DNA of 64,000 nt from a virus. This document shows, piece after piece, positions 2,551 to 58,079 of this stretch. The stretch covers positions 1-64,000 of the IMG/VR virus record IMGVR_UViG_3300048014_000015; one strand, 5' to 3'. The notes under the pieces are model-generated. The model saw nothing but the letters and a program-made list of their open reading frames with translations. It was not told where the DNA came from and ran no database searches. The translations under genes were made by a program, and so were the position numbers. How positions within the stretch are numbered: the stretch's first letter is position 1; each line of letters opens with the position of its first letter.

Positions 2551-2597
2551 TTAATTACCTATAGGTTAAATTGCAAAGGGAAACCACAAATCAGTCA

Positions 2598-4927: not shown

Positions 4928-5374
4928 TTATTCTGGTTCACCTACAGGACTTTCAATTAGCCATTCATGCGAGTTTCCGGGATTTATTTCTCCACTCTGA
5001 TATAAACCATATTTCCACGGTAATCTAAATCTTGTTGGATCACGTTTCCATGTTTGAAGTTTACCAGATACACGAACTGGATGGGCTTCCCCCCTCCTAT
5101 TACGGGAAGTTCTATGGAAAAACGGCCCTAGTGATTTATTGTTTGCTAATCTCTCTTCTAATATCTTTTTTGTAACACTAGGTATAGCTAATACCCTTTG
5201 GGTAGGTGATAGACCTATATGTAAATCACCGTCGTAGTTTCTTAATCTATCTAATACTTTAGGATGTACTGTAGGATCATTATCCTCTAACCAATCTGCA
5301 AACACTTTTCTAGTAGTAATATCGTTAGGTTCTTTAATTAGTTTATCTATAAATGCTTGTCGATCTTCTCTCAT
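4928..5374 (-). CDS. TIGR02996-like (repeat-companion) domain protein
   Basis: N-terminus reads ...NDITTRKVFADWLEDNDP..., matching the D-x-x-x-R-L-V-[FY]-A-D-W-L-E-E-x-G-D-P signature. Confidence 0.7.
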   Translation of the reverse strand: MREDRQAFIDKLIKEPNDITTRKVFADWLEDNDPTVHPKVLDRLRNYDGDLHIGLSPTQRVLAIPSVTKKILEERLANNKSLGPFFHRTSRNRRGEAHPVRVSGKLQTWKRDPTRFRLPWKYGLYQSGEINPGNSHEWLIESPVGEPE

Positions 5375-11566: not shown

Positions 11567-14304
11567 TACTTATAGCCCCTAAATGTTCTACGACGACGAC
11601 TATATAAATTTCTACCTGGACTATGTTTACCAATATTAATTTTAAGTTTCTTACCTGGATGCCCGCTAATATCCCAACTCCAATTATTGTTACCTTGTTT
11701 GGCTTTCATAGCTGCATTTATAATCGCATGCTTTAATAGGTTGTGTACTACAGGTATATGTTTTTTACCTAAACCTAAAAATTTAGCTAATGCTCTAGCA
11801 TGTGTGGTAGCGTGATTGTGTGCCCAACTATCAAGAGTATTATGTAATTGGTCATTAGGTGGTTGACTGTTATTAGGTGGTGTCGGTTGTGCAGCAGTCT
11901 TATGTGATTCTGGTAAATAAGGTAATTGATGTAATCCGTGTTCATCACCTCCCCTTACTTTACCTAATAAAGTAAGGGGAGATGGTTGTACGGTAGTCTT
12001 TTGTGGCTCTGGTAAGTAGGGTAGAGAATGATAACCAGCAGGGTCTTCCTCTTGATTTACCCTAGGTGGTGGGGAGTAGTTAGCTGGTCCATACATTGCT
12101 TCCATACCCATATCTAGGGCTGGATCATGCCATTTACTAGTTTTTGGTGAATCTATAACTTTAGGAAATTTAGGTACAGGTGGTTTACCTAAAGCATACC
12201 TTTTTAATAACCTATTACGTCTTTGTTGAATTGGGTCGTTTTCATGTTTCATAATTTTATTCCTAAAGGTGTCTCTAGCTTGTGCTTGATCTTGTGAACC
12301 TACTGTAAAAAAATGTCCTTGTGATGCTTCGATAGGTACTTTTTGTTGTTTAGCAAACTGATGTATAGTATTGGTATTTTGGTTACCCTTATCTGGTAAT
12401 AATATATCTAACCCCTTTTTATGTGGTACAAAGATTCTACTCATTATACCAAACCTATCAAGCTTTACTCGTGTCTCGTATCCAGAACCTTGCATCCGTA
12501 GACGATATAATGTATCTGGTCCACTAGGTCTAACATGAAATACACCATATCCAGGACTATTCGGTAATAATCCATTTACCCAACTACCTAGAGCATGTGC
12601 GGCATTGGGTTGTATTCTTCCATATACTGCCACCGCTACACCTGGAACGGATTGAGTAGGGGTATCGTGCAATGCAGGGAACTGTTTGGTCTTTTGTGCT
12701 CCAACTTTCTTAGCTAACTCCCGAGTACGTTGTACGAATATTTTATGTTCAGGACTACTCGCTTTTAATAGTGCACCAATAAAGTTAGACTTATTGGCTA
12801 ATGAGTACTTTCTAGGTAGCCTTTTACCATTGTCTCTTAGTGATCCATTACTAATTCTTACCCACCCATCATTCTGTTTAGGAAACACTTCTGCTTCATA
12901 AGTAACTTCACTAACGCCGGGTACTTCTTTAAACTTTTTTATAGGTAAATTATTATTTCCTTTACCCCAATTATCCCCATCACCGCCCACATACCACACA
13001 TGACTACCTTTAACAAATATCTGTCCATAACCCGGCATAGCACCATTTTTAGATAATAATTTACCTATAGAAGTTAATTTATTATAATCTAACTTTTTCT
13101 TCTTATACCGAGTAGCTATCTCATTTTGTTTATTAGTAGGATCATTATCGGACTTTTCATGCGGATTGTTTAACGCACTTTTAACACCCCTATATGGTGG
13201 ACTACCATGCCTATTACGTGCTGCTTCCTGAAGTCCCCTATACGCATGTCGTTGTATGGATTCTTCTATCTCTTTATCGCTTGATTCCGGTGATAGTTGT
13301 TTAATTCTGTTAAAAATTCCTATATATCTTGACCTATCGTATCGTGGGGTTCCAGGTTTAGTTCTTCTATCCGAGTCAGCTTCTACAGCGTAATACTCTG
13401 GTGAGTGGGAAAAAGGATTATTAATTGCCGTCACTGGCCTATTTTCTTCTGAAACCTTTCTGAGAACAGAGTAGGTATGTTGATCCAGGTGCAATTTATT
13501 AACTGCATTTAACCAATTATATTTAGCTTTTAATATTGGGTGTTTACTGTGATTTAGTTCATCGTGTAAACCCCATAAAGCCTCTGCATGTCCCCTAAGA
13601 ACTGCTACAGCTAAATTTCTAGCATCTGGTGTACTATGTTTACTATTAGCTATATGCCTTAAAGCATACTCAATAGGAAATCCACGTACTAATGGATGTG
13701 CTGGTTCTTTATATGGGAATCTAGCATATCTTTTAGGATTGTTACTTCTAGGATAAGCGGGTCTACCCTTTTTCTTTAAAAACTCAATAGGTTTAGTTCT
13801 ACGATGCATAGAATAGTAATCTTCTGGTATTGTCTCATCAGGTCGCCAATCTACTCCTTCTGCTTCTGGTGCTTTTCCTCCTAACCCATACATCCATAAA
13901 TGGTATTCAGATAATGGTTTACCGATGAGTTCCCTTGCTTCAGGTAACTTATCCCAATCACCATGTTCAGCTTCACTATGTGGTACTGCTTCTCCTGCAG
14001 ATTGCCATATATACTTGCCATTATGTTTTACAGGTTTATAACCCCTTACAACTTTCCAACCTCTTATAGATGATTGAGACTTACCGTATATCCCTGGTTT
14101 ATTAAGATCAGTATTTACTAATTCACTATACTTTATAGATTTAGTTCTACGATTCATATTAGTATATCCTAACCTATATAACAATCGTTGTAACAGCAGT
14201 AGTTTATTAGGTGGTAGTTCAAGATTAAGTCGCTTTAATTTCTTCTGTTCAAGAAGAAGTTCAGCAACTTTCTTTTCCATCTCCTTCCTGGTCATTATCC
14301 CCAC
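11566..14304 (-). CDS. large hypothetical protein (912 aa)
   Basis: Long uninterrupted ORF with basic K/R-Y-A/S motifs and an internal LPYLPE[PS].K repeat. No enzymatic motif recognised. Confidence 0.7.
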   Translation of the reverse strand: MGIMTRKEMEKKVAELLLEQKKLKRLNLELPPNKLLLLQRLLYRLGYTNMNRRTKSIKYSELVNTDLNKPGIYGKSQSSIRGWKVVRGYKPVKHNGKYIWQSAGEAVPHSEAEHGDWDKLPEARELIGKPLSEYHLWMYGLGGKAPEAEGVDWRPDETIPEDYYSMHRRTKPIEFLKKKGRPAYPRSNNPKRYARFPYKEPAHPLVRGFPIEYALRHIANSKHSTPDARNLAVAVLRGHAEALWGLHDELNHSKHPILKAKYNWLNAVNKLHLDQHTYSVLRKVSEENRPVTAINNPFSHSPEYYAVEADSDRRTKPGTPRYDRSRYIGIFNRIKQLSPESSDKEIEESIQRHAYRGLQEAARNRHGSPPYRGVKSALNNPHEKSDNDPTNKQNEIATRYKKKKLDYNKLTSIGKLLSKNGAMPGYGQIFVKGSHVWYVGGDGDNWGKGNNNLPIKKFKEVPGVSEVTYEAEVFPKQNDGWVRISNGSLRDNGKRLPRKYSLANKSNFIGALLKASSPEHKIFVQRTRELAKKVGAQKTKQFPALHDTPTQSVPGVAVAVYGRIQPNAAHALGSWVNGLLPNSPGYGVFHVRPSGPDTLYRLRMQGSGYETRVKLDRFGIMSRIFVPHKKGLDILLPDKGNQNTNTIHQFAKQQKVPIEASQGHFFTVGSQDQAQARDTFRNKIMKHENDPIQQRRNRLLKRYALGKPPVPKFPKVIDSPKTSKWHDPALDMGMEAMYGPANYSPPPRVNQEEDPAGYHSLPYLPEPQKTTVQPSPLTLLGKVRGGDEHGLHQLPYLPESHKTAAQPTPPNNSQPPNDQLHNTLDSWAHNHATTHARALAKFLGLGKKHIPVVHNLLKHAIINAAMKAKQGNNNWSWDISGHPGKKLKINIGKHSPGRNLYSRRRRTFRGYK

Positions 14305-15200
14305 CCTATTTCATTTATTGCTGGGTATATTAAATCACTGGGATTATCAAGATTGATTTTACTTAATTCTTCTTTCCATACAGATTCAATTCTTGGTGTA
14401 ACTACATCTGTAGGTAAATCGTGATTCTGGTGGACGACAATCGCTGACTCATTAGAACAGGTATAGTTCGCTATACCTAATACCCTACGTCTATGCATCC
14501 AACCAACATCACAACTACCCCACATTGATGTATTAATCATACCTCCGAGTCTCTTCCATGTTTCTCTACTATGTCCCCCAAATATCCAGGATTCCCAAGT
14601 TGGTATACGACTACCCGGCTGAGCTACGATATCAGTAGCTCTATGTGAAAAGTCAGGGTGTCCATTAGTATCATCTTCATAAAACCTATCAATATCTCTT
14701 ACCGCTAGTAGTCCCTTTTCTATCCATTGTACACTATCCAACAATACCTGTTCTTTGGGAGAAAGATAGTATGATCTACAACAGGCGTATAAACCTATAG
14801 GGGTTCGTTTATCAGTTGGTCCCTGATCTATTCTAACTTTTTCAAATTCATCTAATTTCTTTACACAATCCAAAACACTAGTCCTACCAACCATAATTTC
14901 AGGATGGGTAAGTATTATGTGTCTACCTTGTGAGACACGAATACCGTGATTAATGGTTGCAGCACAATCACGCCATTTTTCTTGCTTAGGGTGTGGTGTG
15001 AGTATGGTTGTTTTAATACCAGTACGATGTGACCAGCTATCAACCAGAGCATAGGTACAGTCGGTAGAACTATCGTCTACCACTACCAACTCAAATAGGT
15101 TTTTTGGAAATTCTTGTTTCTCATAACACATTAAGGAACGTTCTAGTAAATGACTACGGTTATATGTAGCCATAACAACTGAACAAATAATCTTATCCAT
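14295..15200 (-). CDS. glycosyltransferase family 2
   Basis: N-terminus CSVVMATYNRSHLLERSL...LVVVDDSSTDCT is the classic GT2 (GT-A, DxD) signature. Confidence 0.85.
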   Translation of the reverse strand: MDKIICSVVMATYNRSHLLERSLMCYEKQEFPKNLFELVVVDDSSTDCTYALVDSWSHRTGIKTTILTPHPKQEKWRDCAATINHGIRVSQGRHIILTHPEIMVGRTSVLDCVKKLDEFEKVRIDQGPTDKRTPIGLYACCRSYYLSPKEQVLLDSVQWIEKGLLAVRDIDRFYEDDTNGHPDFSHRATDIVAQPGSRIPTWESWIFGGHSRETWKRLGGMINTSMWGSCDVGWMHRRRVLGIANYTCSNESAIVVHQNHDLPTDVVTPRIESVWKEELSKINLDNPSDLIYPAINEIGWG

Positions 15201-16084: not shown

Positions 16085-17563
16085 TTAGTTTAATATCCCT
16101 ATACCCATCCATTGTTCATCATCACTTCTAATAAACTCAATGGCTGGGCGAGTTTTCTTTAGTTCGCGGTAGAGTGTTGGTGTGCCGCCATTTTGGGCTT
16201 CTCTCTTTACACAGGCATCTTTGATATCGTGAAACATTACTAAAGGAGAATCTTTTAATCTTTCATAATCCGATTTAGCAGCATTGTAATTATGGTCAGC
16301 ATCTATAATCACTAAATTAAAATCCCTACCACTAAAGTCATTAGACGTTACACCATACTTATACTCAAGTCCCGGTAATTGTATTGGTGGTTCATACTTA
16401 TATAGGTCAATTGCTGTATATATTATATCATCAATAAATTTACCTATATAAGTATGAAGTATAGCACTTAAGTAACCGTGAAAACACCCCACCTCTAGTA
16501 TACGAAAACGACCATACCCAGTAATTTCTAGACTCAACCATATTAGAAAGTGTGCTAATTCTTCTGGATGCTGCCACAATCCAGGACGTTTTAATGGTGC
16601 TTTAGCAAATTCCCACTCACCATACATCGGTCTACCATCGTTATACAGTCCTACAGAGGCTAGTAAACTTGATAAATATTGTGGATTCCTTAACTGTTGG
16701 TATGTGCTAGAATTTAGCTTTTCTAGTGTAGTTTCTAGTCTATTGGATGGGTTGGGTGTGAGCATTTTATAAGCATCTAGTAAAGTACCATCTTCTAATC
16801 CTGCTCCACGTTGAGAATAGAAAGCATAATGTACGAATGGACCGCAACTACCAGCAATTACGTTAGGTCTACTTACTCTTTTGGGTTCTTGGTGGGCTAA
16901 CCAGGCCTCTTCATCATTAGACATGGTATTAGCCCACACCGCACAATCAGAACCCAACCAACTGATAACATTGATCGAATGTCTTAGGTAATCTGGTGGC
17001 CCTAAAACAATATCTGGTAGGTGCCAACTATCTGGATTAGGGTCGTTAATAAAATCTTGATGTAATAACCTAACAAACTCTGACGAACCCCAACCTACTT
17101 GATCCATACACCCTACACCAACTGTTCCACGAGATAACGGAATACGACCTAATTTCTGATGTTCTCTTGATGTAAGGGCAGTATTGATTACATTGCCATA
17201 AACTAAGAAAGGATGTTGATTTTCTATACGACAATTAGCAAGTGCTTTTATTGCTCCAGGATGGTAGTAAACAATATCGTCATCAAGTCTGATATATACG
17301 GTGTCTTTGTCGGTACTATGTGGAAAGAACTTATGTATCCGGTAGGCCACCGGATGATATATCGGTTCTGGTATTTGGACCAATTGACATTTTGGATGCT
17401 TGCATAATTCATGTATGTAGTCTATATCAGGTTGGTGGTCAGTGTTTAGCCATATATCCCACCTATCTACGTCAAGATCAGCAAGCAATCTAGGTGCAAG
17501 TACCCCCATATACTGGTTACGACCAGCGGGAGTACATACTACTACTTTATAACCTTTAATCAT
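16085..17563 (-). CDS. two-domain protein: N-terminal glycosyltransferase-like (DxD) domain fused to a C-terminal class I SAM methyltransferase
   Basis: N-terminal part has VVVCTPAGRN...YIRLDDDIVYY. C-terminal part has RILEVGCFHGYLS...LVIIDADHNYNAAKSDYERL...MFHD. Confidence 0.65.
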   Translation of the reverse strand: MIKGYKVVVCTPAGRNQYMGVLAPRLLADLDVDRWDIWLNTDHQPDIDYIHELCKHPKCQLVQIPEPIYHPVAYRIHKFFPHSTDKDTVYIRLDDDIVYYHPGAIKALANCRIENQHPFLVYGNVINTALTSREHQKLGRIPLSRGTVGVGCMDQVGWGSSEFVRLLHQDFINDPNPDSWHLPDIVLGPPDYLRHSINVISWLGSDCAVWANTMSNDEEAWLAHQEPKRVSRPNVIAGSCGPFVHYAFYSQRGAGLEDGTLLDAYKMLTPNPSNRLETTLEKLNSSTYQQLRNPQYLSSLLASVGLYNDGRPMYGEWEFAKAPLKRPGLWQHPEELAHFLIWLSLEITGYGRFRILEVGCFHGYLSAILHTYIGKFIDDIIYTAIDLYKYEPPIQLPGLEYKYGVTSNDFSGRDFNLVIIDADHNYNAAKSDYERLKDSPLVMFHDIKDACVKREAQNGGTPTLYRELKKTRPAIEFIRSDDEQWMGIGILN

Positions 17564-17934: not shown

Positions 17935-19011
17935 CTATTTAAGTAATCCTTTAATTAGTGTTCTAAATTTATCAGCATTATCATGCCATGATACACAGTA
18001 TTTATCGAATTGTCCGTAAGTCGGTTCATATCCACTACCGTTGATAATTTCGTTCCATATTCTGCCTAGTTTTTCCTGTTCAAAATTGTGTTGAGCATTG
18101 CTAGCTCTTGTATGCAGTATAGTTGAACCACCTGTATAACACGCCCAATTTAATTTATCAAAATCATATTTTAGTCTTCGCCCCATCCATATATCACCAA
18201 ACCTATTAAGAGTTGGAATCTTTCCAGTACCCTTACATTTAGAACAGGGTTCGGTTTTCAGGTTGTCATTACCATTACATAAAGGACATTGACCAGTAAT
18301 ACCTGTATCTGGTCCCATAGGTGCAAAATAAAGGTATGGTAGTGCCTCTACCTTTACCATTACGTTCATCCCACATAAGGGAAATAAAGTTCCCCCAGGT
18401 ATTGGACCAACATAGTACGGTAGTGTTCCGGGAATACCTTGACCGCTTTCCAGTTTTAATTGTGTCTCACCGTCAAAATCTGGAACACCAATCCATACAC
18501 CGTGAGATAGCATTACTGGAGATTCATTCCGTATGCTGTACGGAACACCCCTAAGATATAGGTCGGTATCATGTGCTGTATTCATCCACGATAAAGGTAC
18601 TCGTTTTTGAAGTACATCCAGGTGCTGTTGTATAGGATCATTAAATGGTTCTGGATTAGCCAGTATTCCATTAAATTTTTGGTTTAGTGGTACGGGAGCT
18701 ACATCATCATCTAATGTCAAAATGTGTGTAGGTTTTAATGTTCCTGCTAATATAAATCCTAAATTTCTAACTGAATCAGTTTTTCGATATATCAGACTTT
18801 TATACTTTTCATATAACGTCCCACCATCCTTCTTCAATTCAATTTTATCTTTATAATTGTAAACAGCTACTTCCGGTATATCTCCATCCCATACCGTAAT
18901 TAAAGTAACCTCATGTCTATTAAATAGAAAATCCCAAGCTTTTAGGAATGTTTTATACTGCTCTACTCGAATAGTTGGAATTACTACAACAATCTTGTTA
19001 GGTTTAGTCAT
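17935..19011 (-). CDS. GT75 / reversibly-glycosylated-polypeptide (UDP-arabinopyranose mutase)-like protein with an inserted CxxC zinc finger
   Basis: VVVIPTIR, WDGD, TLDDDV, RGVPYSIRNESPVMLSHGVWIGVPDFDGETQL, IPGGTLFPLCGMN, RFGDIWMG and HTRASN match the plant RGP signature blocks. Start moved to ATG 19011 because the track's N-terminal extension overlaps tRNA-Leu. Confidence 0.8.
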   Translation of the reverse strand: MTKPNKIVVVIPTIRVEQYKTFLKAWDFLFNRHEVTLITVWDGDIPEVAVYNYKDKIELKKDGGTLYEKYKSLIYRKTDSVRNLGFILAGTLKPTHILTLDDDVAPVPLNQKFNGILANPEPFNDPIQQHLDVLQKRVPLSWMNTAHDTDLYLRGVPYSIRNESPVMLSHGVWIGVPDFDGETQLKLESGQGIPGTLPYYVGPIPGGTLFPLCGMNVMVKVEALPYLYFAPMGPDTGITGQCPLCNGNDNLKTEPCSKCKGTGKIPTLNRFGDIWMGRRLKYDFDKLNWACYTGGSTILHTRASNAQHNFEQEKLGRIWNEIINGSGYEPTYGQFDKYCVSWHDNADKFRTLIKGLLK

Positions 19012-19035
19012 AATGTTTAACCCATGGGTTAGGTG

Positions 19036-19117
19036 TGGTAGTGGTGGGAATCGAACCCACAAGCTTTTCAGCGACCGATTTTAAATCGATTGTGTTTACC
19101 AGTTTCACCACACTACC
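19036..19117 (-). tRNA. tRNA-Leu (anticodon UAA), type II with long variable arm
   Basis: Manual cloverleaf: acceptor GGTAGTG/CACTACC, 3-bp D stem, anticodon loop TTTAAAA, variable arm GCT-GAAA-AGC, T arm GTGGG-TTCGATT-CCCAC. No encoded CCA. Confidence 0.85.
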
Positions 19118-21117: not shown

Positions 21118-21153
21118 ACTATATTCCTTATAGGTTAATACTATATCCTATAG

Positions 21154-24328: not shown

Positions 24329-24340
24329 CTATAGGTTAAT
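24329..24340 (-). promoter_or_regulatory. TTAACCTATAG leader motif upstream of terL
   Basis: Gene-sense ATTAACCTATAG ends 5 nt before the ATG at 24323. One of more than 20 copies of this motif in the window. Confidence 0.5.
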
Positions 24341-26354: not shown

Positions 26355-26375
26355 TTGACAGTATCACACTGTCAA
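26355..26375. promoter_or_regulatory. symmetric TTGACAG-N7-CTGTCAA element (TTGACA on both strands)
   Basis: ttgacagtatcacactgtcaa, embedded in a larger imperfect palindrome (caataggtta...taacctattg) at 26346-26389. Confidence 0.5.
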
Positions 26376-26378
26376 TGA

Positions 26379-26573
26379 CTAACCTATTGTATTTTGAGAG
26401 AAGTGAGCCATCAACTCTACTAGCTGTTTCCGTAGTGTTTCATTAACTCTGATTGACCATGTAGAGGAACTTAGTTTAGCTTTTTCTAATAGAATTATGG
26501 CCTCTTTTAATAGTGGACGTTCCTTATCAATAGCATCTGTTAACTCATTTAAGATAGTAGTACCACTCATCAC
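26379..26573 (-). CDS. hypothetical protein (paralogue of the 25748..26038 C-terminus)
   Basis: DAIDKERPLLKEAIILLEKAKLSSSTWSIRV. Confidence 0.6.
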   Translation of the reverse strand: MMSGTTILNELTDAIDKERPLLKEAIILLEKAKLSSSTWSIRVNETLRKQLVELMAHFSQNTIG

Positions 26574-26877: not shown

Positions 26878-26916
26878 ATAGGTTAATTGTATAATATGTA
26901 TACAATTAACCTATAA
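26878..26916. repeat. 39-bp palindrome carrying the TTAACCTATA motif on both arms
   Basis: tataggttaattgtata-atatg-tatacaattaacctata, with 17-bp perfect arms. Lies between terS and the small-gene cassette. Confidence 0.85.
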
Positions 26917-28257: not shown

Positions 28258-30678
28258 CTATACAATGTTGTTTAGGTTATATTCCTGACCTATTGACCTA
28301 ACTTGATTGTATAACGTCTTAAATGCACTTGTCAAGCGGAATCTAGCAGTTCTTACAGGAAATGGCAGATGGGTCGGAACATATTGTTCCATAACACCGA
28401 TCCTAGGTAAGTACATTAACAAAGATTCCATATCCCTTAAATTTTTACCACACCTACTAGCTAAAGTCTTAGGCTCTAACCCCTCATCTCCATCACTACT
28501 AGCATCTAACAACACCCTCACTAAATCCATAGCCCAACCATCGCTGGTATCTAGTGCAACCTTATAGGTTATTGCAACTACCTGCCTATCTATAGGTCGT
28601 TGCATTACCAAAGCTAAAAACCTAATGAGTTTTACTAGTTGCTTTGATACACGAGCAGGGAGAGACTTTTCAGCAAAGCTTTCTAGACTGGAATTCCTGG
28701 ATGGTCTGCCTCTCATACGCTCAATAAACTTAGCTAATGTACCTAGCTTTACTAACACATCATATGGAACCCCAGGTAAGGTAAGACTATTAGTATCTAC
28801 ACCTAACCTAAGATAGTTTATATATCCGCCAGTTAGTTGTCTAGCTCTGAGATAGTCAGGGTTATCTACACTCTCAGCAGAACCAGTTACTACACCTGAC
28901 CCAGCTTGTTCTTGCATAGCTTTCATAACAATGTCGTCTTCTAACCTATCACTAATTCCCTTTACAATTATATAGTCAATAAATCTTGGACCTAGTTCGG
29001 TATCGTCAAAGTATTTAATCCGTGGAGTACCAGCTAATAACCACGTTCCCCGCCAACCTGAGTACGACCGTTTAATTGAGTTATTGTACACTTTTTCAAT
29101 CTCTCCATCATATATAGCCCTAGCTTGTCCTATTATCTCCTCTGCTCTAGGATGAGTAACAAGTGTTGCGCCTTCCTTGGTAATCAAACATTTGTCGAAC
29201 CATCGAGCTACTAAAGAATGATCCTTACCATCTCCCAAATCCATACCTGAAAAGAAACCATTCATACCATCGTTAAGTATTGTATAACGATCATTTGTTC
29301 CTAGTGCTTTACACAATTGAGATTTATAGGTTGATGGCGGAGATACTAACCTAACCCAAAGAGGCTCACCAACTCCTCTGACAGAGCTAACACAAGCGAG
29401 CGAAACAGCCAGGGCACCATGTAACTCGGGTGTCCACTTAGCCGCTAACTTGAATGAGTCTGTTAGCTCATTCCACGAATTACACTCAATAGGTCTAATT
29501 CGACCAACACCAACATTAGAACCACTACTAGAATTATTTGAACTACTAGAACTTGAACCTACAGGAGTATTAGAACTAAGCAACCATTCACCAGGAACAG
29601 GACGAACATAAGACAGCAATTTACCTATATCCTTTCCATCTTTAATCCAATCCCTCACATCGTATTTATCAGGTATATCTGGATCATATCCCTTACCGTC
29701 TAAATTCCAATCCAACCACGACACGGACAAGGGATGACTTGAACTATCATTCTGACTAGCCATTATTCCTACAGCACGTTTAGTACCTGATAGTGATGGT
29801 TGATAGGTAGTCTTAGTCTTCTCGTTAACCTTTGGATGGTCGTTATCGTATAGAAAAACAACATGCTTATTAGCAATATACCTAACCCAACCCTTATTGA
29901 ATATCCCACACCCTGGAACACCTATCACCACATAATTACCGTTAGGTTTATTCCTCTCAAAAGAACTACCTGTATTTGAACCTAACACACTATCTAAAGC
30001 TACAGCATCCCAAACACCCTCACAGATATATATGGTTTCAGCTTCTTGTAGTTCCGTAGTGATGGCAGAACTACCGTTAACTATTCTAGGCAGATGGATA
30101 CCGTGAGATTCACCCTCAGTGAATCCGGGAGTAATCCACAGTTCGTACCGTGGGGTTCCATCAGGTTTATTCTTCTGACGAGTACGGCGATATAATTGAA
30201 CTATGTTCGGTGGGTGCTTTACCCCATATCCAGGTACTAGCCAATCACCAGTAATAACGCTCTTACATATACCCCATCGTCTGAGAGACTCAACAGATAG
30301 CCTTCTATCCGTGGATAGCTCTTGATAGTCTATAGGTTTGGTATTGGTGTAGGAAATTCTCCACAAATATTTGATAAAACCGTAGTGATTACCTGTGATC
30401 GGGTCGTTCTTATCATCTTTGTACTGATCCTGCCAGTTGCAAACCTTACAATCACTCCGAGAGGTGTTTGTATCGATGTAAAATTTAGGCTTATCACAGA
30501 ACGGACAAATAGCCAACCACTCTCGGGTATCTCTGCGAACAAACTCGACACCATGGAACCGATAGGGGAAGATAGCCCTAGGCTCTGTGGTGGGGTTCCC
30601 ACTACTACTACTAGCTGACTGGCTCTGTGATAGGTTTGCAGCAGGGATACTAGGGGTAGGGGTATCTTTCTGTGGCAC
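28258..30678 (-). CDS. DNA primase (zinc finger + TOPRIM) with a large C-terminal helicase-like/unknown domain
   Basis: CPFC...x17...CKVC zinc motif. TOPRIM residues IYICEGVWDAVAL and FLYDNDHP. The C-terminal 400 aa have only a degenerate P-loop-like SPPSTYKS. Confidence 0.8.
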   Translation of the reverse strand: MPQKDTPTPSIPAANLSQSQSASSSSGNPTTEPRAIFPYRFHGVEFVRRDTREWLAICPFCDKPKFYIDTNTSRSDCKVCNWQDQYKDDKNDPITGNHYGFIKYLWRISYTNTKPIDYQELSTDRRLSVESLRRWGICKSVITGDWLVPGYGVKHPPNIVQLYRRTRQKNKPDGTPRYELWITPGFTEGESHGIHLPRIVNGSSAITTELQEAETIYICEGVWDAVALDSVLGSNTGSSFERNKPNGNYVVIGVPGCGIFNKGWVRYIANKHVVFLYDNDHPKVNEKTKTTYQPSLSGTKRAVGIMASQNDSSSHPLSVSWLDWNLDGKGYDPDIPDKYDVRDWIKDGKDIGKLLSYVRPVPGEWLLSSNTPVGSSSSSSNNSSSGSNVGVGRIRPIECNSWNELTDSFKLAAKWTPELHGALAVSLACVSSVRGVGEPLWVRLVSPPSTYKSQLCKALGTNDRYTILNDGMNGFFSGMDLGDGKDHSLVARWFDKCLITKEGATLVTHPRAEEIIGQARAIYDGEIEKVYNNSIKRSYSGWRGTWLLAGTPRIKYFDDTELGPRFIDYIIVKGISDRLEDDIVMKAMQEQAGSGVVTGSAESVDNPDYLRARQLTGGYINYLRLGVDTNSLTLPGVPYDVLVKLGTLAKFIERMRGRPSRNSSLESFAEKSLPARVSKQLVKLIRFLALVMQRPIDRQVVAITYKVALDTSDGWAMDLVRVLLDASSDGDEGLEPKTLASRCGKNLRDMESLLMYLPRIGVMEQYVPTHLPFPVRTARFRLTSAFKTLYNQVRSIGQEYNLNNIV

Positions 30679-30826
30679 TTTGGTACTACCTCTCTCGTAA
30701 AAACTGGGGTCGGTAAACAGTCGTGGAGAATTTTTCGGAAACTTTTTTCCTGCTCAAAAACACTGGAATTTCTGGCGTATTCGCAGATTCCGAAAGAGCA
30801 TTAGGTGAAAAAACAAACTCCTGATA

Positions 30827-30855
30827 TTGACAGTTAGCAGCTGTCGGCTTAAAAA
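30827..30855 (+). promoter_or_regulatory. sigma70-like promoter with dyad (TTGACAG-N7-CTGTC), -10 TAAAAA
   Basis: TTGACA 30827-30832, 17-nt spacer, TAAAAA 30850-30855. Faces the GC-rich island. Confidence 0.55.
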
Positions 30856-30884
30856 GATCTTACCACAGTGGTCAAGGTGATCCA

Positions 30885-30928
30885 CTGGGGGAATTAACCT
30901 ATCACAGTTTTGAGGGGAAGTCATGGCA
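30885..30928 (+). repeat. partial copy of the island cassette-boundary repeat
   Basis: ctggggaattaacctatcacagttttgaggggaagtcatggca is identical to 31222-31265, including RBS, ATG and the first codons (MAR). Confidence 0.85.
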
Positions 30929-31159
30929 AGGGCACTGGTCAACGCGAACGAGTTCATCGGTCGCAACGCGAAGATGGACGCTCTGCTCCGATACGTCTTC
31001 GAGACCTGTGAAAGGCCGCACGGCCTCAATCCGGGCACGCTTCAGGTCTGGGAGGCGATGATGTTCCTTGGTGTCGTGAACTGCGGTGCAGACGGCCGAG
31101 CATGGCTTTCTGAGGGCGGCAAGGAACTGTTCAAGCTGGCGGATCGTGGGTCAAGGTGA
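30923..31159 (+). CDS. hypothetical protein (GC-rich island ORF A, 78 aa)
   Basis: GAGGGGA RBS 5 nt upstream of the ATG. GC-rich codon usage unlike the backbone. Confidence 0.6.
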   Translation: MARALVNANEFIGRNAKMDALLRYVFETCERPHGLNPGTLQVWEAMMFLGVVNCGADGRAWLSEGGKELFKLADRGSR

Positions 31160-31164
31160 GTAAA

Positions 31165-31245
31165 AACAGGTGTGACCAGCGGCAGGTAGGTGCAAGCCCT
31201 ATCCACACCTCTCCCCAATGTCTGGGGAATTAACCTATCACAGTT
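31165..31245 (+). repeat. 81-bp cassette-boundary repeat, copy 1
   Basis: aacaggtgtgaccagcggcaggtaggtgcaagccctatccacacctctccccaatgtctggggaattaacctatcacagtt. One mismatch to 32258-32338. Contains AGGTGTG/CACACCT and CCCCA/TGGGG stems. Confidence 0.9.
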
Positions 31246-31258
31246 TTGAGGGGAAGTC

Positions 31259-32245
31259 ATGGCACGGGTCGAACAGTACTTGCCGGTTGGAACAGTGGTC
31301 ACCGCTCGCCCACAGGGAGGAAAGGCGATTGAATGGACCACAAAAAGGGAGGTGACAATCGCGGATCATGTCCAACAGGATTGCCCGCTCGGGGGCAAGA
31401 CAAAAACCCTCACCGGAACTTTTCTTCGCGACCGTCAATGCACGGTCAGCGGTGTGGAAATTTGGTTCTCGGCCCGATCACTCCGTCAGAGAATCGCGGT
31501 GGACAAGTGGGAGGTCTGTGATGATGCATACAACCACCAACTCACCAAAATCGACTACGATATCCCGACTTCTTTGGGGCAGGCGTACGCAGTGAGCGTA
31601 GCCGCTGAACTCCACAAAATTGGTGTCCGTTCATCAAATTCCTGTTGGTTTGTCCGCACCGGAGATACTCCCTACTATCTGTTAGGAGAGATGGAAGAGA
31701 TGGGCGTACGCAAAGTTAGTGCCGACAGGATTGACCCATCAGAGACAAAAAAGTTGATTGCTCGAATGATAGTCGAATTGTCCGAGCAAGTAGAAAAATA
31801 CGTTCGGGGGGCTAATGAGACTCTCGTGTCGGCAACGGCGAAGTTGCAAGAGTCACAAGAGAATGGAATAGATGAGGAGAAGGCGGTCAACGACTGCCTG
31901 ATAGCTGCTAAAGCTTTGGAAAAGAGGTTGGAAAAATACAAGGAACAAATGCTCGCTGGAGCGAACAAACTGGGGATTCGCTCTTCGGCATGGAATGCTG
32001 ACAGGCTATCACAGATTGCTCAGGTGACGGGCAGTGAGCTACGAAAACGGGCAGCAGCATACAAACGAGCGGCGGATATCCTAGTGCAGAGTACAGATAC
32101 TGATTTGCACGCGGCTGGCATAGTCGCACAAGTATCAGCCCTACCAGCGGGGGTCATGGCTGATATTCTTCGCGAAGCTGGACATGAATCGGCAGCGGAA
32201 GAATTGACCGCTGAATACTCACTCCTGGATACACTGGGTGATTAG
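31259..32245 (+). CDS. hypothetical protein (island ORF B, 328 aa, C-terminal coiled-coil-like half)
   Basis: Same leader and RBS as ORF A. Long ORF in the only sensible frame. No recognisable motif. Confidence 0.7.
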   Translation: MARVEQYLPVGTVVTARPQGGKAIEWTTKREVTIADHVQQDCPLGGKTKTLTGTFLRDRQCTVSGVEIWFSARSLRQRIAVDKWEVCDDAYNHQLTKIDYDIPTSLGQAYAVSVAAELHKIGVRSSNSCWFVRTGDTPYYLLGEMEEMGVRKVSADRIDPSETKKLIARMIVELSEQVEKYVRGANETLVSATAKLQESQENGIDEEKAVNDCLIAAKALEKRLEKYKEQMLAGANKLGIRSSAWNADRLSQIAQVTGSELRKRAAAYKRAADILVQSTDTDLHAAGIVAQVSALPAGVMADILREAGHESAAEELTAEYSLLDTLGD

Positions 32246-32257
32246 TACAGGAGTTAG

Positions 32258-32338
32258 AACAGGTGTGACCAGCGGCAGGTAGGTGCAAGCCCTACCCACA
32301 CCTCTCCCCAATGTCTGGGGAATTAACCTATCACAGTT
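32258..32338 (+). repeat. 81-bp cassette-boundary repeat, copy 2
   Basis: Identical to 31165-31245 except one base (t/c). Followed by a 7-bp duplication (cacagtt). Confidence 0.9.
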
Positions 32339-32374
32339 CACAGTTTTGAGCAACCCCTGACTGGAGACTGACCC

Positions 32375-32692
32375 GTGACGACCGACACCATGACCATGAC
32401 CCTGCAATCGTTCCTCGCCGAGCATGCGATCTGCCGCGTGTGGTACGCGAGCGTCGCGTCCCCCGGCGGGAGCGAGTTGGTTCTCAACACCGACGACGAC
32501 TACTGCGACTCGCAATCTCTGCTGGAGACACCGCCGGTCCCGGCAGCCCTCGACCTGGGGGGCACCGTGACCCGCGACGCGGACGGCGAGTACCGCTGGA
32601 AGGTCGATTCGCTCGCGGGCGTGGACTTGCGGGACTGCGCCAGGTCCACCGTCTACGACCTGACCGTCTGGGGCGATGTCATTCAGGGCTGA
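32375..32692 (+). CDS. hypothetical protein (island ORF C, ~105 aa, very GC-rich)
   Basis: GTG start 9 nt after GGAGA; alternative ATGs at 32390 and 32396. Strong GC3 bias in this frame only. Confidence 0.6.
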   Translation: MTTDTMTMTLQSFLAEHAICRVWYASVASPGGSELVLNTDDDYCDSQSLLETPPVPAALDLGGTVTRDADGEYRWKVDSLAGVDLRDCARSTVYDLTVWGDVIQG

Positions 32693-33031
32693 CGACGACC
32701 GTCGCGAACACTATACGGACGGAGACCCGATCTACTCCGTCTGCAACCGCGACACGAATATTACTATCCTACTATCCTATCGTACATCATGTATAGGGTG
32801 TGTATCTCTGTGGGTGTCCAATGAATGTCAGACTATTAGAGAAGCTGTCGATCAGTGGCTAACTCACGGAGGGAGTGAGTGAGAAGACGGCTTACCAGGA
32901 AGTGGGATGAGGGTGGGGTTGTTGCCCTGCCCCCTTTAATCGTTTACAGGATGCTTCAGGATCGACGATCTACGTGCTGTGTGTGAAATCACTCAGGGGG
33001 ATAGCTCGAATCGATCCTGGAGTGAGTAAAC

Positions 33032-33925
33032 CTAACAGTAGGTAGAGTGGGGAGCAGGGAGCACTATAGGACGACACCTAGAACGTCTGATTAGATTAGA
33101 ATTAGATAAACGATCATTAGACTTATTAGTTTTAGAATGATCTATCTTAGAGTGCCCTACTTTAGAATGATCTACTTTAGAATCATCATCACTATTTGGT
33201 ATACCCCCTAACTTACCTATAACTAATTTATGTACTAATTTACGTATACCATCTTGAGCATTGTGTCCCATACTCCTTAACTTACGAATCTCTATAGGTG
33301 ATAACCAGGTAGTAACTGGTTTCTTCTTTTTATTAGGACTAATTTTAGGTTTACTATACTGTTTTAAACCTAACACAGTATTAGATTTGGTACTGTGTGG
33401 TAAACCGCATCGCTTTTGAGCGGTGGTTAGTACGACCCTCCTGGATTTCATATACCGCATCGCTGTATCTGATCGTCCCATCTTCATTGCGGCATCTAAT
33501 AGTTTTTTCCTACGATGTTCTGGTAGATTACCAAACTCATGAGCCGCTTCATCATCTAAACTTCTTCTACTACTATGTACTCTAGAATTAGCTGCGAGTG
33601 GTGGACCAACATCTGGTCCATGATGCATCCTAGCAAACCAATCTCCAGGTAGTTCGTCAGGTTGTGGTATATCTGTGTCATCGTATAACCAGTATCTCCA
33701 TCTATGGGGTATAAATGGTCCCTCTGAATAAAGATTATGATGTTCTTCAGGTTCACCACGATCACTATAAGCAGTAGGTATTTTACGCATTAAACCTAAT
33801 GCACGATAACCTTTTGCTCTTGGATCACCAATCTCCTCTAAGTGGTCAGCTAGTACCATCCTGGTATGATGGTCATCTGGATGTTGGTCTAAGTGAGCCT
33901 GCATAGCTTCTTCTGTATCTGTCAT
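33032..33925 (-). CDS. TIGR02996-like domain protein
   Basis: N-terminus EEAMQAHLDQHPDDHHTRMVLADHLEEIGDPRAKGYRALG. Confidence 0.75.
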   Translation of the reverse strand: MTDTEEAMQAHLDQHPDDHHTRMVLADHLEEIGDPRAKGYRALGLMRKIPTAYSDRGEPEEHHNLYSEGPFIPHRWRYWLYDDTDIPQPDELPGDWFARMHHGPDVGPPLAANSRVHSSRRSLDDEAAHEFGNLPEHRRKKLLDAAMKMGRSDTAMRYMKSRRVVLTTAQKRCGLPHSTKSNTVLGLKQYSKPKISPNKKKKPVTTWLSPIEIRKLRSMGHNAQDGIRKLVHKLVIGKLGGIPNSDDDSKVDHSKVGHSKIDHSKTNKSNDRLSNSNLIRRSRCRPIVLPAPHSTYC

Positions 33926-38037: not shown

Positions 38038-38066
38038 AGTATACCACGACAGCTACTATCTGTCAA
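38038..38066 (-). promoter_or_regulatory. sigma70-like promoter with dyad (TTGACAG-N7-CTGTC), -10 TATACT
   Basis: Minus sense reads TTGACA-gatagtagctgtcgtgg-TATACT. Confidence 0.65.
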
Positions 38067-38378: not shown

Positions 38379-39410
38379 TTACATCTCCCCCTTAATAACC
38401 TTTAAGATTTTCTCGTAGGTAGGATCTACGATGAAATCAGGTAGTGGTGTTGTGATGTTAATCGACCTACGAAACTTAGTTCGATAGATAGGATCGGGAC
38501 CAACTCTCAATACATATTCAGTACCTACTTTAACTTTGGTAGGTATAGATATATCTCCCATCATTTGTTGTTGTGTTTCTGTCTTATCTCGAATAACCGT
38601 TTGACCCATATAGGATACCTCAGCATTTAAAAAATCTGATACAGATTTACCTATAGCACTAGAAATATTGGGTTTCAGGAATTCACTCATAGCAGGGGAA
38701 GTACCCTCATCGTGGGTTAGATTCACCTCATGGGAGTTAATTACTATAGATAATTCATTAGACCTAGGAATATCTAAAATAGCTTGTAGCATCTTCATTA
38801 AATCATGAGAACATTGTATCCAAACATCCTTCCACTCTTTACTAGCATATAAGAACGGTTTACTAGCTGGAACCTCTTTTCCTTGTGCGGCAAATAGCTC
38901 TACAATACGGTTTTTACGAAGTTTCGTAGCTGTGTCCAATACTATTGTCCTATATCTTTCTCCAGTAAATGAGCCCATACCCAAGAACTTTAATTGTTCT
39001 TTGAAACTGTTACCCTTGTCTTGAGAATTAACCACTTTACTGAACCCCCACTGTGACCGACCACTAACAGCATGCTCCAAACACCTGTAATAGTCACTAG
39101 CAGTCTCAATATTAGCTACATCTATTCCCGGAACACCAACGATACTATCAGTTCCCACTTCAGTAGCAATTAACAAAAGTGGTTTAGGAAAGGTACAAGC
39201 GATTCTAGTCTTACCTGTTCCTGGATCACCGTACCAGCTACATTTTAACCTATTGTAGTTAGTAGACTCTACTGGTTTTATAAGTGAACCTATGTTATGG
39301 GTTCCGTTTGAGTTCGTCTGTATTTGTGGAAATGTTGGGTTTATCTGTGTGGTACGGGATGGCATCTGATGTTTCCTGTTCTGGGGTGTAAATAGGTTGG
39401 AAAGACTCAC
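38379..39410 (-). CDS. Sak4-like / AAA_24 RecA-fold ATPase
   Basis: Walker A WYGDPGTGKT and Walker B IVLDTATKL. Start is uncertain: GTG at 39410 or ATG at 39365. Confidence 0.8.
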   Translation of the reverse strand: MSLSNLFTPQNRKHQMPSRTTQINPTFPQIQTNSNGTHNIGSLIKPVESTNYNRLKCSWYGDPGTGKTRIACTFPKPLLLIATEVGTDSIVGVPGIDVANIETASDYYRCLEHAVSGRSQWGFSKVVNSQDKGNSFKEQLKFLGMGSFTGERYRTIVLDTATKLRKNRIVELFAAQGKEVPASKPFLYASKEWKDVWIQCSHDLMKMLQAILDIPRSNELSIVINSHEVNLTHDEGTSPAMSEFLKPNISSAIGKSVSDFLNAEVSYMGQTVIRDKTETQQQMMGDISIPTKVKVGTEYVLRVGPDPIYRTKFRRSINITTPLPDFIVDPTYEKILKVIKGEM

Positions 39411-39529: not shown

Positions 39530-40702
39530 TTACTTCCTTGTAACTAAATTACTGGTATTGGTTTTCAATTCTGTAAACATTTCTGTACATTCCTCTAAAT
39601 TTGCTGTACTCCCAGTAAGAATATAATCGTCATATTCTGATCCATAATCATTTGTTATAGATGGTATACCAAAGGGAGTAGTATACTGAATATTGTCCAG
39701 GAGAGTCGTAAGAATATTACTAGTCCATGACGCAGATGATCCAGGACTTCTAATTAGTTGCTCCTTATAATTGATAACAGTCTGGCAATCCCACCATATA
39801 CATAATCTCTCCAAAGTTGGGATTAGGGTTTCTTTTTCAAAAACTTCTATATCTTCTTCACTTTTCTCTGTTTCCCACCTAAAGAAATACGTCTCTGGTT
39901 CGTCCTGTATATATTTCGCTAACCTATTATAATACTGATCGATAGACTCATTTTTTGTCTGTCTGATACTCCCCTTACCACCAGATAATGGTCTTCTAAT
40001 TACGTTATAACGAATGCCTTTTACTTTATTACCATAAGTATGTCTCAGTGCAATCAGGTATATCATTGTCTGTAAGTCATACTTTAATTGTCTCTCAATT
40101 TTACTAACATCTACCTCGCCTTTAGTTTTTGTATCTCCTAGCCATATTTCGGAGTTGTCGTCATCTATCCAATCCATTTTTCCACGTAGATATACCGTCC
40201 TACCACTAGGTAGTTCATACGGAACACAAAATACATGTTCCTTAGCTATTGGCCTATTACCAAACTTCATGGAATGGTAGTTCTTTTCCCAATAGCTTAT
40301 ATAAACTGGAAACTGACATAGACATACACTATACCATTTATAAATCTCTTCTTGAGAGAAAGGATATAACCTACAGAGTTGTTCGGCATATTCCTTTAGT
40401 GCATAGGACCAACCTAAATTACTTCCAACCCCAATATTCGATGAGCTATATAACTCATCACATAGGTGAAACATATTTCCATATTCTAGTTTATGGTTAA
40501 ACGTACTCCTAGGTTTTAGCTTATCAATAATAAATACTTTGAACCGTTTTGGACATGCTAGGAATTTACCTAACAGACTTTGTGTTACTCCACCATTGGG
40601 AGAATTTACCTCTGGACCATCCCAGATAGGTTTAGTATTAACGTTCACGTTAGATAGTGGGTGAACGTATGGAACGGCATTATTCGGATTGGTATTATTC
40701 AT
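39530..40702 (-). CDS. PD-(D/E)XK nuclease (RecB/Cas4-like exonuclease)
   Basis: GKMDWIDD, LGDTKTK (D-x-K) and QLKYDLQTMIY (QxxxY) motifs in the canonical order. Confidence 0.75.
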   Translation of the reverse strand: MNNTNPNNAVPYVHPLSNVNVNTKPIWDGPEVNSPNGGVTQSLLGKFLACPKRFKVFIIDKLKPRSTFNHKLEYGNMFHLCDELYSSSNIGVGSNLGWSYALKEYAEQLCRLYPFSQEEIYKWYSVCLCQFPVYISYWEKNYHSMKFGNRPIAKEHVFCVPYELPSGRTVYLRGKMDWIDDDNSEIWLGDTKTKGEVDVSKIERQLKYDLQTMIYLIALRHTYGNKVKGIRYNVIRRPLSGGKGSIRQTKNESIDQYYNRLAKYIQDEPETYFFRWETEKSEEDIEVFEKETLIPTLERLCIWWDCQTVINYKEQLIRSPGSSASWTSNILTTLLDNIQYTTPFGIPSITNDYGSEYDDYILTGSTANLEECTEMFTELKTNTSNLVTRK

Positions 40703-41657: not shown

Positions 41658-41685
41658 CTGGTCTCTACCTTTTGTGTTAGGTTAA

Positions 41686-42901: not shown

Positions 42902-42979
42902 GTTACTGGTTAGGTAGGGAATTAACCTAACGAATACTTGATAGTTTGATTTAACCTATCACACTTTTGGAGTACTACG

Positions 42980-43780: not shown

Positions 43781-43809
43781 TTGACAGCTACTAGCTGTCG
43801 GGATAGGAT
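43781..43809 (+). promoter_or_regulatory. sigma70-like promoter with perfect dyad GACAGCTA-C-TAGCTGTC, -10 TAGGAT
   Basis: TTGACA 43781-43786, 17-nt spacer, TAGGAT 43804-43809. Confidence 0.6.
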
Positions 43810-49546: not shown

Positions 49547-49575
49547 AACAAAACTCCTTTAGGTTAAAAATACAA

Positions 49576-58012: not shown

Positions 58013-58079
58013 TATTTTTGAAAGAAAATCCCTATATTATGTATATAGGTTAATTATAGGGTATATTAACCTAACATAG

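Follow-up and report, generated by a model that had tools for sequence, protein, structure and literature searches.

A candidate composite junction element repeated in a gene island of an uncharacterised tailed phage

Introduction

How are the accessory-gene regions of phages, in which anti-defence and host-takeover genes turn over fastest, put together? Their assembly is known in detail only for T4-type phages, through the promoter-early stem-loop (PeSL) cassettes (PMC2839356; PMC4122927). Here we ask the question of a 64,000-nucleotide stretch of viral DNA (IMG/VR record IMGVR_UViG_3300048014_000015, positions 1 to 64,000; referred to as the window), in which two near-identical direct repeats with an 81-nt core bracket a single open reading frame (ORF). 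According to the original prediction for this locus, each repeat would act as a terminator-like stem followed by a promoter or leader and a ribosome-binding site (RBS), would mark the boundary of a gene cassette in a hyperplastic region rich in genes without relatives (ORFans), and would resemble a PeSL. Our analysis of the window and of related phages suggests that the repeat is a diverged member of a clade-specific family of helix-plus-box units, and we consider it probable, if only just, that it is a composite intercistronic junction element, made of a helix, a box, the 8-mer gene-start motif TTAACCTA and a Shine-Dalgarno (SD) sequence, that doubles as recombination homology. The locus shows the same logic as the T4-type regions in an unrelated phage clade with differing hardware, namely a covarying, partly tRNA-like bipartite helix and a conserved box.

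Two near-identical repeats bracket ORF B

The window covers nearly all of a 64.3 kb contig and represents an uncharacterised tailed phage of ~64 kb. Nearly all of its genes lie on the minus strand at ~37-39% GC, and the repeats sit in a plus-strand island at ~30.7-33.0 kb with a GC content of 54% versus 39% elsewhere. The repeat copies, their footprint and the genes next to them are arranged as follows.

30870-30880 (+): 11-mer GGTCAAGGTGA, duplication footprint, the same as the last 11 nt of ORF A
30888-30932 (+): copy 0, a partial unit that consists of the gene-start module alone, with the structured helix missing; TTAACCTA at 30894-30901, then the SD sequence, the ATG at 30923 and the MAR codons
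30923-31159 (+): ORF A, 78 aa, GC 0.60, member of a small protein family
31158-31245 (+): copy 1, which precedes ORF B; SD at 31248-31256 and ATG at 31259 downstream
31259-32245 (+): ORF B, 328 aa, bracketed by the two repeat copies
32251-32338 (+): copy 2, sub-parts as in copy 1, offset by +1093

A repeat search of the window returned the direct repeat over 88 nt (31158-31245 and 32251-32338) at 97% identity. Its 81-nt core, 31165-31245 versus 32258-32338, differs at a single base, as originally described: position 31202 is T where 32295 is C. The near-identity of the two copies may reflect a recent duplication or gene conversion. The 22-mer GGGGAATTAACCTATCACAGTT, which forms the 3' end of the unit, has three exact occurrences in the 64 kb against 0.00 expected. 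Copy 0 matches 31224-31268 over 45 nt with one mismatch (98% identity), and the match spans the RBS, the ATG and the first codons, so that ORF A and ORF B both begin with MAR. The partial copy and the shared MAR start had both been pointed out before and are real; only the coordinates then given to the partial copy, 30885-30928, were one base out of register, because copy 0 reads CTGGGGG where copy 1 reads CTGGGG.

The 11-mer GGTCAAGGTGA, originally taken for a recombination footprint, occurs in the whole window at 30870 and 31149 and nowhere else. Some 11-mer repeat within the island is unremarkable, being seen in 39% of shuffles; that the same 11-mer should lie no more than 30 nt upstream of another copy has a probability of ~7e-6, in keeping with the footprint. 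Copy 2 does carry the 7-bp tandem duplication attributed to it (CACAGTT CACAGTT, 32332-32345), and its homology stops at TTTTGAG (32343-32349).

A Logan unitig (L004, from ERR9963778) and a Joint Genome Institute (JGI) contig (L124, from 3300048015) are both 100% identical to the window across the junctions, and the ends of the unitig fall inside the repeats, as expected of a real repeat; the repeats are therefore no assembly artefact. The search for further copies that had been proposed came back empty: searches of the 64-kb window and of IMG/VR detected no other 81-mer, relatives have only diverged members of its family, and exact-pattern scans of IMG/VR with the 22-mer and with a 32-mer of the repeat gave no match.

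Helix-plus-box units precede island genes in related phages

Homologues of ORF B and of the phage's primase led to five related phages with the same backbone (L001, L085, L087, L089 and L090) and to a 2 kb fragment (L003), and the unit family was defined from these six. All five phages have a GC-enriched, opposite-strand island at the same place, which makes the island ancestral to the clade and not a recent insertion; that of the window is the most reduced. Within the variable part of the relatives' islands, which is the part close to the promoter, a helix stands upstream of most genes and directly adjoins a box of sequence CTCTCGCCCAA[T/A/C]. The helix consists of an outer stem of 6-8 bp and an inner arm of 4-7 bp with a loop of 7-8 nt, stacked on the 3' strand of the outer stem, and when the units are folded without constraint the outer stem closes 1-4 nt before the box in nearly every one. 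From the end of the box to the start codon there are 19-43 nt in the relatives; the two window copies have 39 and 62 nt.

Two classes of unit were distinguished. In class 1, a 7-bp outer stem is followed by a 2-nt bulge, a 4-bp inner stem and the loop ATCAGGGA; over ten units, 96.4% of the alignment cells are paired versus 29-45% in slid controls, with compensatory double changes in 8 of 11 pairs. In class 2, a 7-bp outer stem is joined through a 5' linker of 9-13 nt to an inner arm of 4-7 bp that has a 7-nt loop and is stacked on the 3' strand; here 97.2% of cells are paired over six units (controls, 38-60%), double changes are found in 10 of 12 pairs, and the G-C pair that closes the loop is invariant. 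The units are always co-oriented with the genes, and on the sense strand there are five G.U pairs and no A.C pair. The same type of unit precedes unrelated genes in different genomes, and near-identical copies within one genome are also found in L001, which has three of class 1.

Several class-2 arms resemble tRNA T-arms, among them GTAGG-TTCGACT-CCTAC and TAGGG-TTCGATT-CCCTA, and another has the loop TTCAACT; a covariance model of the class gave weak matches to genuine tRNA T-arms. In a small Rfam scan, two units of L087 had mascRNA (RF01684) as their best match, at 17 bits against a gathering threshold of 42.5 and with E >2. Rfam, including the tRNA family (RF00005), had no match in the window region at E<=1, and in the relatives it found nothing inside the islands, its matches there being two true tRNA genes in L085 and weak overlaps. 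A gapped pattern of class-1 loop plus box had 0 matches in IMG/VR and 31 in GTDB genomes; since the latter number is at chance level and none of the matches has the hairpin, they do not indicate that cellular genomes carry the element. We also considered pairing of the class-1 loop (AGGGA) with the box (CUCUC) in a pseudoknot and rejected it on geometric grounds, as the box abuts an 11-bp helix without a connecting loop.

The window repeat as a probable diverged member of the family

Mapped onto copy 1, the parts of the unit fall as follows.

31168-31174 / 31204-31210 (+): outer stem, AGGTGTG/CACACCT
31175-31184 (+): linker of 10 nt, ACCAGCGGCA
31185-31203 (+): inner arm of 6 bp with a 7-nt loop, GGTAGG-TGCAAGC-CCTATC
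31211-31219 (+): box-like CTCCCCAAT
31212-31228 (+): private hairpin, with the stem CCCCA/TGGGG at 31213-31217 / 31223-31227
31230-31237 (+): TTAACCTA

When the region 30500-33000 was searched with a class-2 covariance model built from the relatives only, the window copies ranked 1 and 2 in the correct register. The closest unit, L085_3616, has a linker (AGCGGCA) and a loop (GTGCAAGCC) identical to those of the window repeat, while its inner arm is changed at 5 of 6 positions per strand with pairing kept and its outer stem shows two compensated changes. In copy 2 the 3' strand of the inner arm reads CCTACC (32295 C), so that the lone base difference between the copies turns a G.U into a G-C pair within this arm, and the bipartite helix is the centroid fold of that copy. 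On the strength of the helix parts, the model ranking, the homology to L085_3616 and the G.U to G-C difference, we file the window repeat as a probable diverged member of the clade-specific family, with caveats that are weighed below.

Both stems that had been recognised at the outset are thus present, and their interpretation changes: the first is half of the conserved bipartite helix, and the second, CCCCA/TGGGG, appears to derive from a 9-nt insertion private to this phage. The view that the stem is terminator-like finds no support as regards a terminator of the usual kind. No U-tract follows the stem of the repeat and a consensus scan calls no terminator there, while distant relatives end the equivalent operon with canonical hairpin-plus-T-run terminators.

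A gene-start motif and a separate promoter type

The 8-mer TTAACCTA occurs in 30 exact copies in the window, 20 of them in the 9% of the sequence that is non-coding, and 15 copies have a same-strand start codon at most 60 nt downstream, against 0.9 for random positions. It is spread genome-wide and orientation-specific, 8-56 nt upstream of start codons that include those of structural genes, and it forms divergent pairs at strand switches.

2562-2569 (-), 21131-21138 (-), 24332-24339 (-), 41678-41685 (-), 42951-42958 (+) and 49560-49567 (-): examples of TTAACCTA sites
26879-26913: divergent pair of TTAACCTA at a strand switch
58046-58073: divergent pair of TTAACCTA at a strand switch

Most of the relatives have few copies of the motif, L090 a moderate number, and it is probably this phage lineage's own promoter or gene-start signal. 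Distinct from it is a sigma70-like promoter type of the form TTGACAG-N7-CTGTC...TAnnnT, of which the window has four examples.

26355-26385 (+): TTGACAG-N7-CTGTC promoter
30827-30855 (+): sigma70-like promoter that opens the island, as read from its sequence; TTGACA, N17, TAAAAA, with the palindrome GACAG-N7-CTGTC inside
38038-38066 (-): TTGACAG-N7-CTGTC promoter
43781-43809 (+): TTGACAG-N7-CTGTC promoter

Three sites fit the promoter search pattern, against 0.02 expected, and the island's own at 30827-30855 is a fourth. The same type opens or punctuates the islands of relatives, where it was seen in L085, L087, L089 and L003; its embedded palindrome could be an operator. In front of island genes that have such a promoter, the box is found ~17 nt downstream of the -10 element and without a hairpin, which places the box in the 5' untranslated region. 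For the same reason the box itself was rejected as a promoter. Both TTAACCTA and the TTGACAG-N7-CTGTC promoter type are usable for annotating this phage group.

No sigma70-like promoter was found in or near the repeats by a consensus scan. On inspection, the only -10-like hexamer in the repeat is TATCAC (31236-31241), and the sequence 17 nt upstream of it is CCCCAA. The original reading of the 3' portion as promoter or leader and then RBS therefore survives in part: a gene-start or promoter-like signal and an RBS are there, a sigma70 promoter is not, and the signal is the TTAACCTA motif found genome-wide.

A second plus-strand block of the window, at 42.4-47.5 kb, with raised GC (44-46%), has TTAACCTA sites of its own and the sigma70-like promoter at 43781. 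No helix-plus-box units were found in this block, which may be another early or accessory module.

Cargo and gene order differ between relatives

Family A, to which ORF B belongs, is present in all six genomes and is the sole island gene common to all relatives. Families B to I are patchy, many island genes are unique to one genome, and gene order varies: A stands before B in L090, the orders H-B-F and B-H-F both occur, and G is found on either side of A. These differences in cargo and order fall at the unit-bearing junctions, in relatives too diverged for exact break points to be placed. The proposal that the repeats mark cassette boundaries in a hyperplastic, ORFan-rich region is thereby upheld, since relatives hold other cargo in other order at the same locus. 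In more distant relatives (L122 and L123, with primases ~40% identical), the locus has one or two opposite-strand genes, furnished with a sigma70-like promoter and the canonical hairpin-plus-T-run terminator. No relative was found by a search of IMG/VR with the phage's DNA polymerase (PolA), a PolA-based metagenome scan found distant relatives only, at <=39% identity, and a megablast search of 9 kb around the locus against GenBank phages gave no match.

Many unrelated island genes in the six genomes share the initiation region GGAGAAYGATC-ATGGCAC(G/A)C and start with MAR, MAH or MAK. Together with the shared start of ORFs A and B in the window, it suggests that exchange can take place at points just inside the coding sequence. 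A perfect 8-bp hairpin, GTAAGACT-GTTT-AGTCTTAC, stands at ~510-530 (-) of L089 and ~7225-7245 (-) of L090; in both genomes it is kept between the stop codon of the family-B gene, which it directly follows, and a class-2 unit. L001 is CBCUEQ010001185.1, a phage contig of 80.4 kb in the Sphagnum balticum assembly GCA_965153435.1; as it carries the locus twice, 65.3 kb apart, it is a genome of ~65 kb assembled past its end. Its island also contains a coding tandem repeat with a period of 6-18 nt (L001 11791-11898).

A probable composite element at gene junctions

How, then, might the repeat work? In the reading that we favour, the setting is a divergently transcribed, probably early, operon of accessory genes in a lytic-type tailed phage. 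The 5' two thirds of the repeat would form the bipartite helix on the sense strand, most probably as mRNA, with the geometry of a tRNA acceptor/T-arm minihelix, and next to it would stand a degenerate copy of the clade's box; the 3' third would supply the gene-start signal TTAACCTA, the SD sequence and the start codon. The helix would act on the upstream cistron, closing or insulating it, in the manner of an RNA element for 3'-end definition, processing or stability and not as a canonical terminator, and the box, TTAACCTA and the SD sequence would together launch the downstream cistron. Recurring units would give 45-90 nt of homology at successive junctions to the phage recombination system, and ORF B is predicted to be excisable as a circle of 1093 bp.

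We infer action on the sense strand from the covariation of the stems beside a conserved loop and linker, from the shared orientation of units and genes, and from the excess of G.U over A.C pairs. An intercistronic RNA element is preferred to a terminator because no U-tract follows the stem and relatives use canonical terminators at the ends of their operons. The phage also encodes an AAA_24 protein (38379-39410, -) and an adjoining PD-(D/E)XK nuclease (39530-40702, -), a pair that we take to be a likely phage homologous-recombination module and that could act on short repeats; together with the homology between units, this pair can explain the gain, loss, replacement and reordering of small genes among the relatives, as well as the placement of one unit type before unrelated genes in different genomes and the near-identical copies within the window and within L001. 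Should the helix prove to be an RNA-processing signal, it would be a new phage way to punctuate operons and would offer a sequence by which cassette arrays could be recognised in metagenomic phages.

Several observations weigh against the reading of the repeat as a composite junction element of this family. Full copies in this genome number only two, and the window copies score weakly with the covariance model (10.7 and 7.4 bits, E 0.05 and 0.4 in 2.5 kb), whose search missed them under its default filters. The stems that folding was expected to show are there, but the stability of the unit does not exceed that of shuffled sequences (z -0.65 to -1.9). The minimum-energy fold of copy 1 is not the one with the homologous inner arm, which has a rival inner fold of equal energy. 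The window box, CTCTC-CCCAAT, is one base short of CTCTCGCCCAA and lacks its G, though L090 has a similar variant, CTTCCCCCAAC; and a 9-nt insertion, GTCTGGGGA, parts CCCAAT of the window box from ATTAACC, two segments that adjoin or almost adjoin in L090 and L001. The alignments used for covariation comprise 6-10 sequences and were curated by eye, and sampling was thin, with six genomes including one fragment of 2 kb. Lastly, look-ups with ORF B and ORF C, the next gene of the island, returned no variant of the same phage with alternative cargo, all three datasets having the identical arrangement, so that the expected cargo variation is seen between relatives at the same locus and not within this phage.

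Comparison with known systems

Taken together, the sequence evidence indicates that the locus is an array of repeated regulatory junction cassettes of a known sort, whose structured core is new and well supported by covariation. PeSLs combine a near-consensus sigma70 promoter (a TTGACA-like -35 element, N17 and a TATAAT-like -10 element) with a simple G/C stem-loop that has been shown to terminate, one defined layout having the stem-loop between -35 and -10 (PMC2839356; PMC4122927). Like PeSLs, the units are short, intergenic, composite regulatory repeats in a hyperplastic, ORFan-rich region; they stand immediately upstream of small genes and end in an SD sequence and start codon; their sequence is lineage-specific, genes are inserted, deleted, replaced and reordered between relatives, and direct repeats bracket a gene in a way that predicts its excision as a circle. 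Unlike PeSLs, the window repeat has neither a sigma70 promoter nor a U-tract, its start signal is the phage-specific 8-mer, and in the units a conserved box comes after a helix that is bipartite and covaries, its loop and linker being conserved. The islands do have PeSL-like promoters that enclose a palindrome, as at 30827-30855 of the window, and these are elements distinct from the 81-bp repeat. As it has no sigma70 promoter inside and no canonical terminator, the repeat is not a PeSL by definition; the likeness originally drawn holds for function, location and repetition and fails for the defining promoter, a terminator of canonical form being absent as well.

The start-associated sequence (SAS) of Cluster K mycobacteriophages is a 13-bp motif that contains the SD sequence and lies 3-7 bp from the start codon, and in the extended form (ESAS) the arms of an inverted repeat are conserved in sequence, without compensatory changes (PMC3203893). 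There, as here, a short, asymmetric, conserved motif marks the starts of genes outside the structural region, an inverted repeat with variable spacer precedes half of the motifs, and the motif is conserved across subclusters before unrelated genes. The box of the units differs from SAS in ending 19-62 nt upstream of the start codon, and their stems differ from those of ESAS in varying and covarying strongly.

With mitochondrial tRNA punctuation and with the mascRNA and menRNA of MALAT1 and MEN-beta (RF01684) the units share an acceptor plus T-arm geometry, placement within a longer transcript at unit boundaries and, in several of them, T-loop-like loops of 7 nt; they have no D or anticodon arm and no significant match to tRNA or mascRNA. 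We found no description in the literature of tRNA-like minihelix repeats between phage genes. The RNase III hairpins of phage T7 lie between early genes, define mRNA ends and stabilise the messages, and are long, nearly continuous duplexes with an internal loop. The units likewise are hairpins of conserved structure between the cistrons of what would be a polycistronic early mRNA made by the host RNA polymerase, but they are short (~13 bp) and split into two parts, have a linker on the 5' side, and are followed by a conserved box that is single-stranded. The attC sites of integrons are cassette-boundary elements of conserved structure and variable sequence with a short motif, and form arrays of promoterless small genes; here, the scanned ORFs contain no integrase, there is no attI and no R''/R' core pair, and the units are upstream of and co-oriented with each gene and carry its start signals.

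Alternative explanations

The most serious competitor, a specific sub-case of the favoured reading and rather unlikely as we see it, is a tRNA-like punctuation in which host RNase P, RNase Z or both (or RNase E) would cut the polycistronic early mRNA at the minihelix into individually stabilised messages, leaving every cistron with a structured end and the box at the start of the downstream mRNA, with the CCA-adding enzyme possibly recruited and the same marks doubling as homology for the swapping of accessory genes. Such a system would be a phage counterpart of mitochondrial punctuation and of the mascRNA of MALAT1, with PeSL-style shuffling added. Its geometry is right, a 7-bp outer stem and a stacked 5-bp arm with 0-1 nt between them; 7-nt loops fit TTCRANY with an invariant closing G-C pair, units of the T-loop type have GG(T) in their linkers, as a D-loop does, the arm of the class-2 model matches genuine tRNA T-arms, the top Rfam family of two units is mascRNA-menRNA, a known RNase P processing signal, and the box lies at a similar distance from sigma70-type promoters, which fits a mark of mRNA 5' regions. 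On the other hand, the Rfam tRNA model finds nothing in the islands, the mascRNA matches are far from their threshold (17 versus 42.5 bits, E >2), the window loop TGCAAGC and the class-1 loops ATCAGGGA are not T-loop-like, and no discriminator-CCA directly follows the stem. Somewhat less probable again is a PeSL in the strict sense, whose stem would terminate upstream transcription and whose internal promoter would restart it. PeSLs are by definition composites of this kind, and the repeats are, as they would be, intergenic and upstream of ORFans in a hyperplastic region, with a motif, TTAACCTA, that looks promoter-like and pairs divergently at strand switches. That account is weakened by the repeat itself, which has no sigma70 -35/N17/-10 arrangement and no U-tract after its stem, and by its surroundings, where relatives put canonical terminators at the end of the equivalent operon and the islands' true sigma70-type promoters are separate elements; a bipartite stem with conserved loop and linker, moreover, exceeds what a terminator needs.

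Two further explanations operate on DNA, and we regard them as far less credible. One would have the units as site-specific recombination sites, attC-like or of a hairpin-plus-cleavage-box kind, at which a tyrosine or HUH recombinase captures and excises cassettes. Structured, variable hairpins with a short box at cassette boundaries do recall integron attC sites and the ends of IS200/IS605 elements, T-arm-like dyads are classic integrase targets, and the cargo varies. Yet the Pfam and PHROGs scans detected no domain of an integrase, a recombinase or an HUH protein in the ORFs that they covered, no inverse-core/core pair flanks the hairpin, the units are always co-oriented with transcription, the asymmetry between G.U and A.C pairs favours the sense strand, and the box also follows promoters that have no hairpin; we hold this account to be very improbable. 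A shade less probable still is an operator, a palindrome bound by a dimeric DNA-binding regulator as proposed for the ESAS of Cluster K. The units do stand just upstream of gene starts, and relatives encode MarR/HTH-like proteins beside the island, but the stem sequences covary while loop and linker are conserved, which is the opposite of a protein-recognised palindrome and of ESAS, and it is this covariation pattern that disfavours the operator. Chance similarity or misassembly, for which only the general caution speaks that metagenomic assemblies can collapse or duplicate repeats, is already refuted by the 80 of 81 identities, by the three copies of the 22-mer against none expected, by the identical sequence in two further independent datasets and by homologous units in five relatives.

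Genes of the island and other features of the window

The island is bounded by the start of the primase gene (28258-30678, -) on one side and by a 297-aa ORF, followed by PolA, on the other. Two further features lie downstream of copy 2.

32375-32692 (+): ORF C, 105 aa, GTG start, GC 0.67, GC at third codon positions (GC3) 0.90, strict ORFan
32911-32932 (+): hairpin with a 9-bp stem rich in G/C and CCTTTAATCGTTT after it, possibly the terminator at the end of the island, proposed from its fold

This hairpin is not significant against shuffles and is not called by the consensus scan. A search of 1.84 billion representatives gave five relatives of ORF A; the best of them, 76% identical, is encoded on a contig where the neighbouring genes are different. 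For ORF B, a word-indexed search found only two homologues; no PDB profile matched it, and its AlphaFold2 model was poor (pLDDT 50), and Foldseek was uninformative. ORF C has no homologue except itself among 5.8 billion proteins and, in a phage of 39% GC, either was acquired very recently from a foreign source or is no real gene. None of ORFs A, B and C matched Pfam, PHROGs or NCBIfam. The N-terminus of the 297-aa ORF (33032-33925, -) matches TIGR02996 at 25.8 bits, under the cutoff of 29.05; the domain is named after Gemmata obscuriglobus, and island ORFs of L001 and L087 have similar N-termini, which may be a weak hint of a planctomycete host.

In addition to the AAA_24 protein and the PD-(D/E)XK nuclease, the phage encodes a terminase, a portal protein, a family-A DNA polymerase and a DnaG-type primase, most of its remaining genes being ORFans. 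ARAGORN detects three true tRNAs in the window, all outside the repeat region. One of them, tRNA-Leu(taa) at 19035-19117 (-), overlaps the 5' end of the listed ORF 17935-19062 (-), which has a TTG start; the true start of this gene is probably further downstream. The same ORF belongs to a cluster of glycosyltransferase-like genes in the structural block (7718-8800, 14295-15200, 16085-17563 and 17935-19062, all -), with families that comprise GT2, the reversibly glycosylated polypeptide (RGP, PF03214), which recurs in L122 and L123, and a weak GT1-like match. The cluster may reflect glycosylation of the virion or of the host surface. Near-identical internal DNA repeats are found in two other, large ORFs, at ~6517-6600 and ~7234-7317 in ORF 5343-7724 (-) and at ~9425-9500 and ~9692-9770 in ORF 8837-10945 (-), and probably encode repeated domains of tail or fibre-like proteins.

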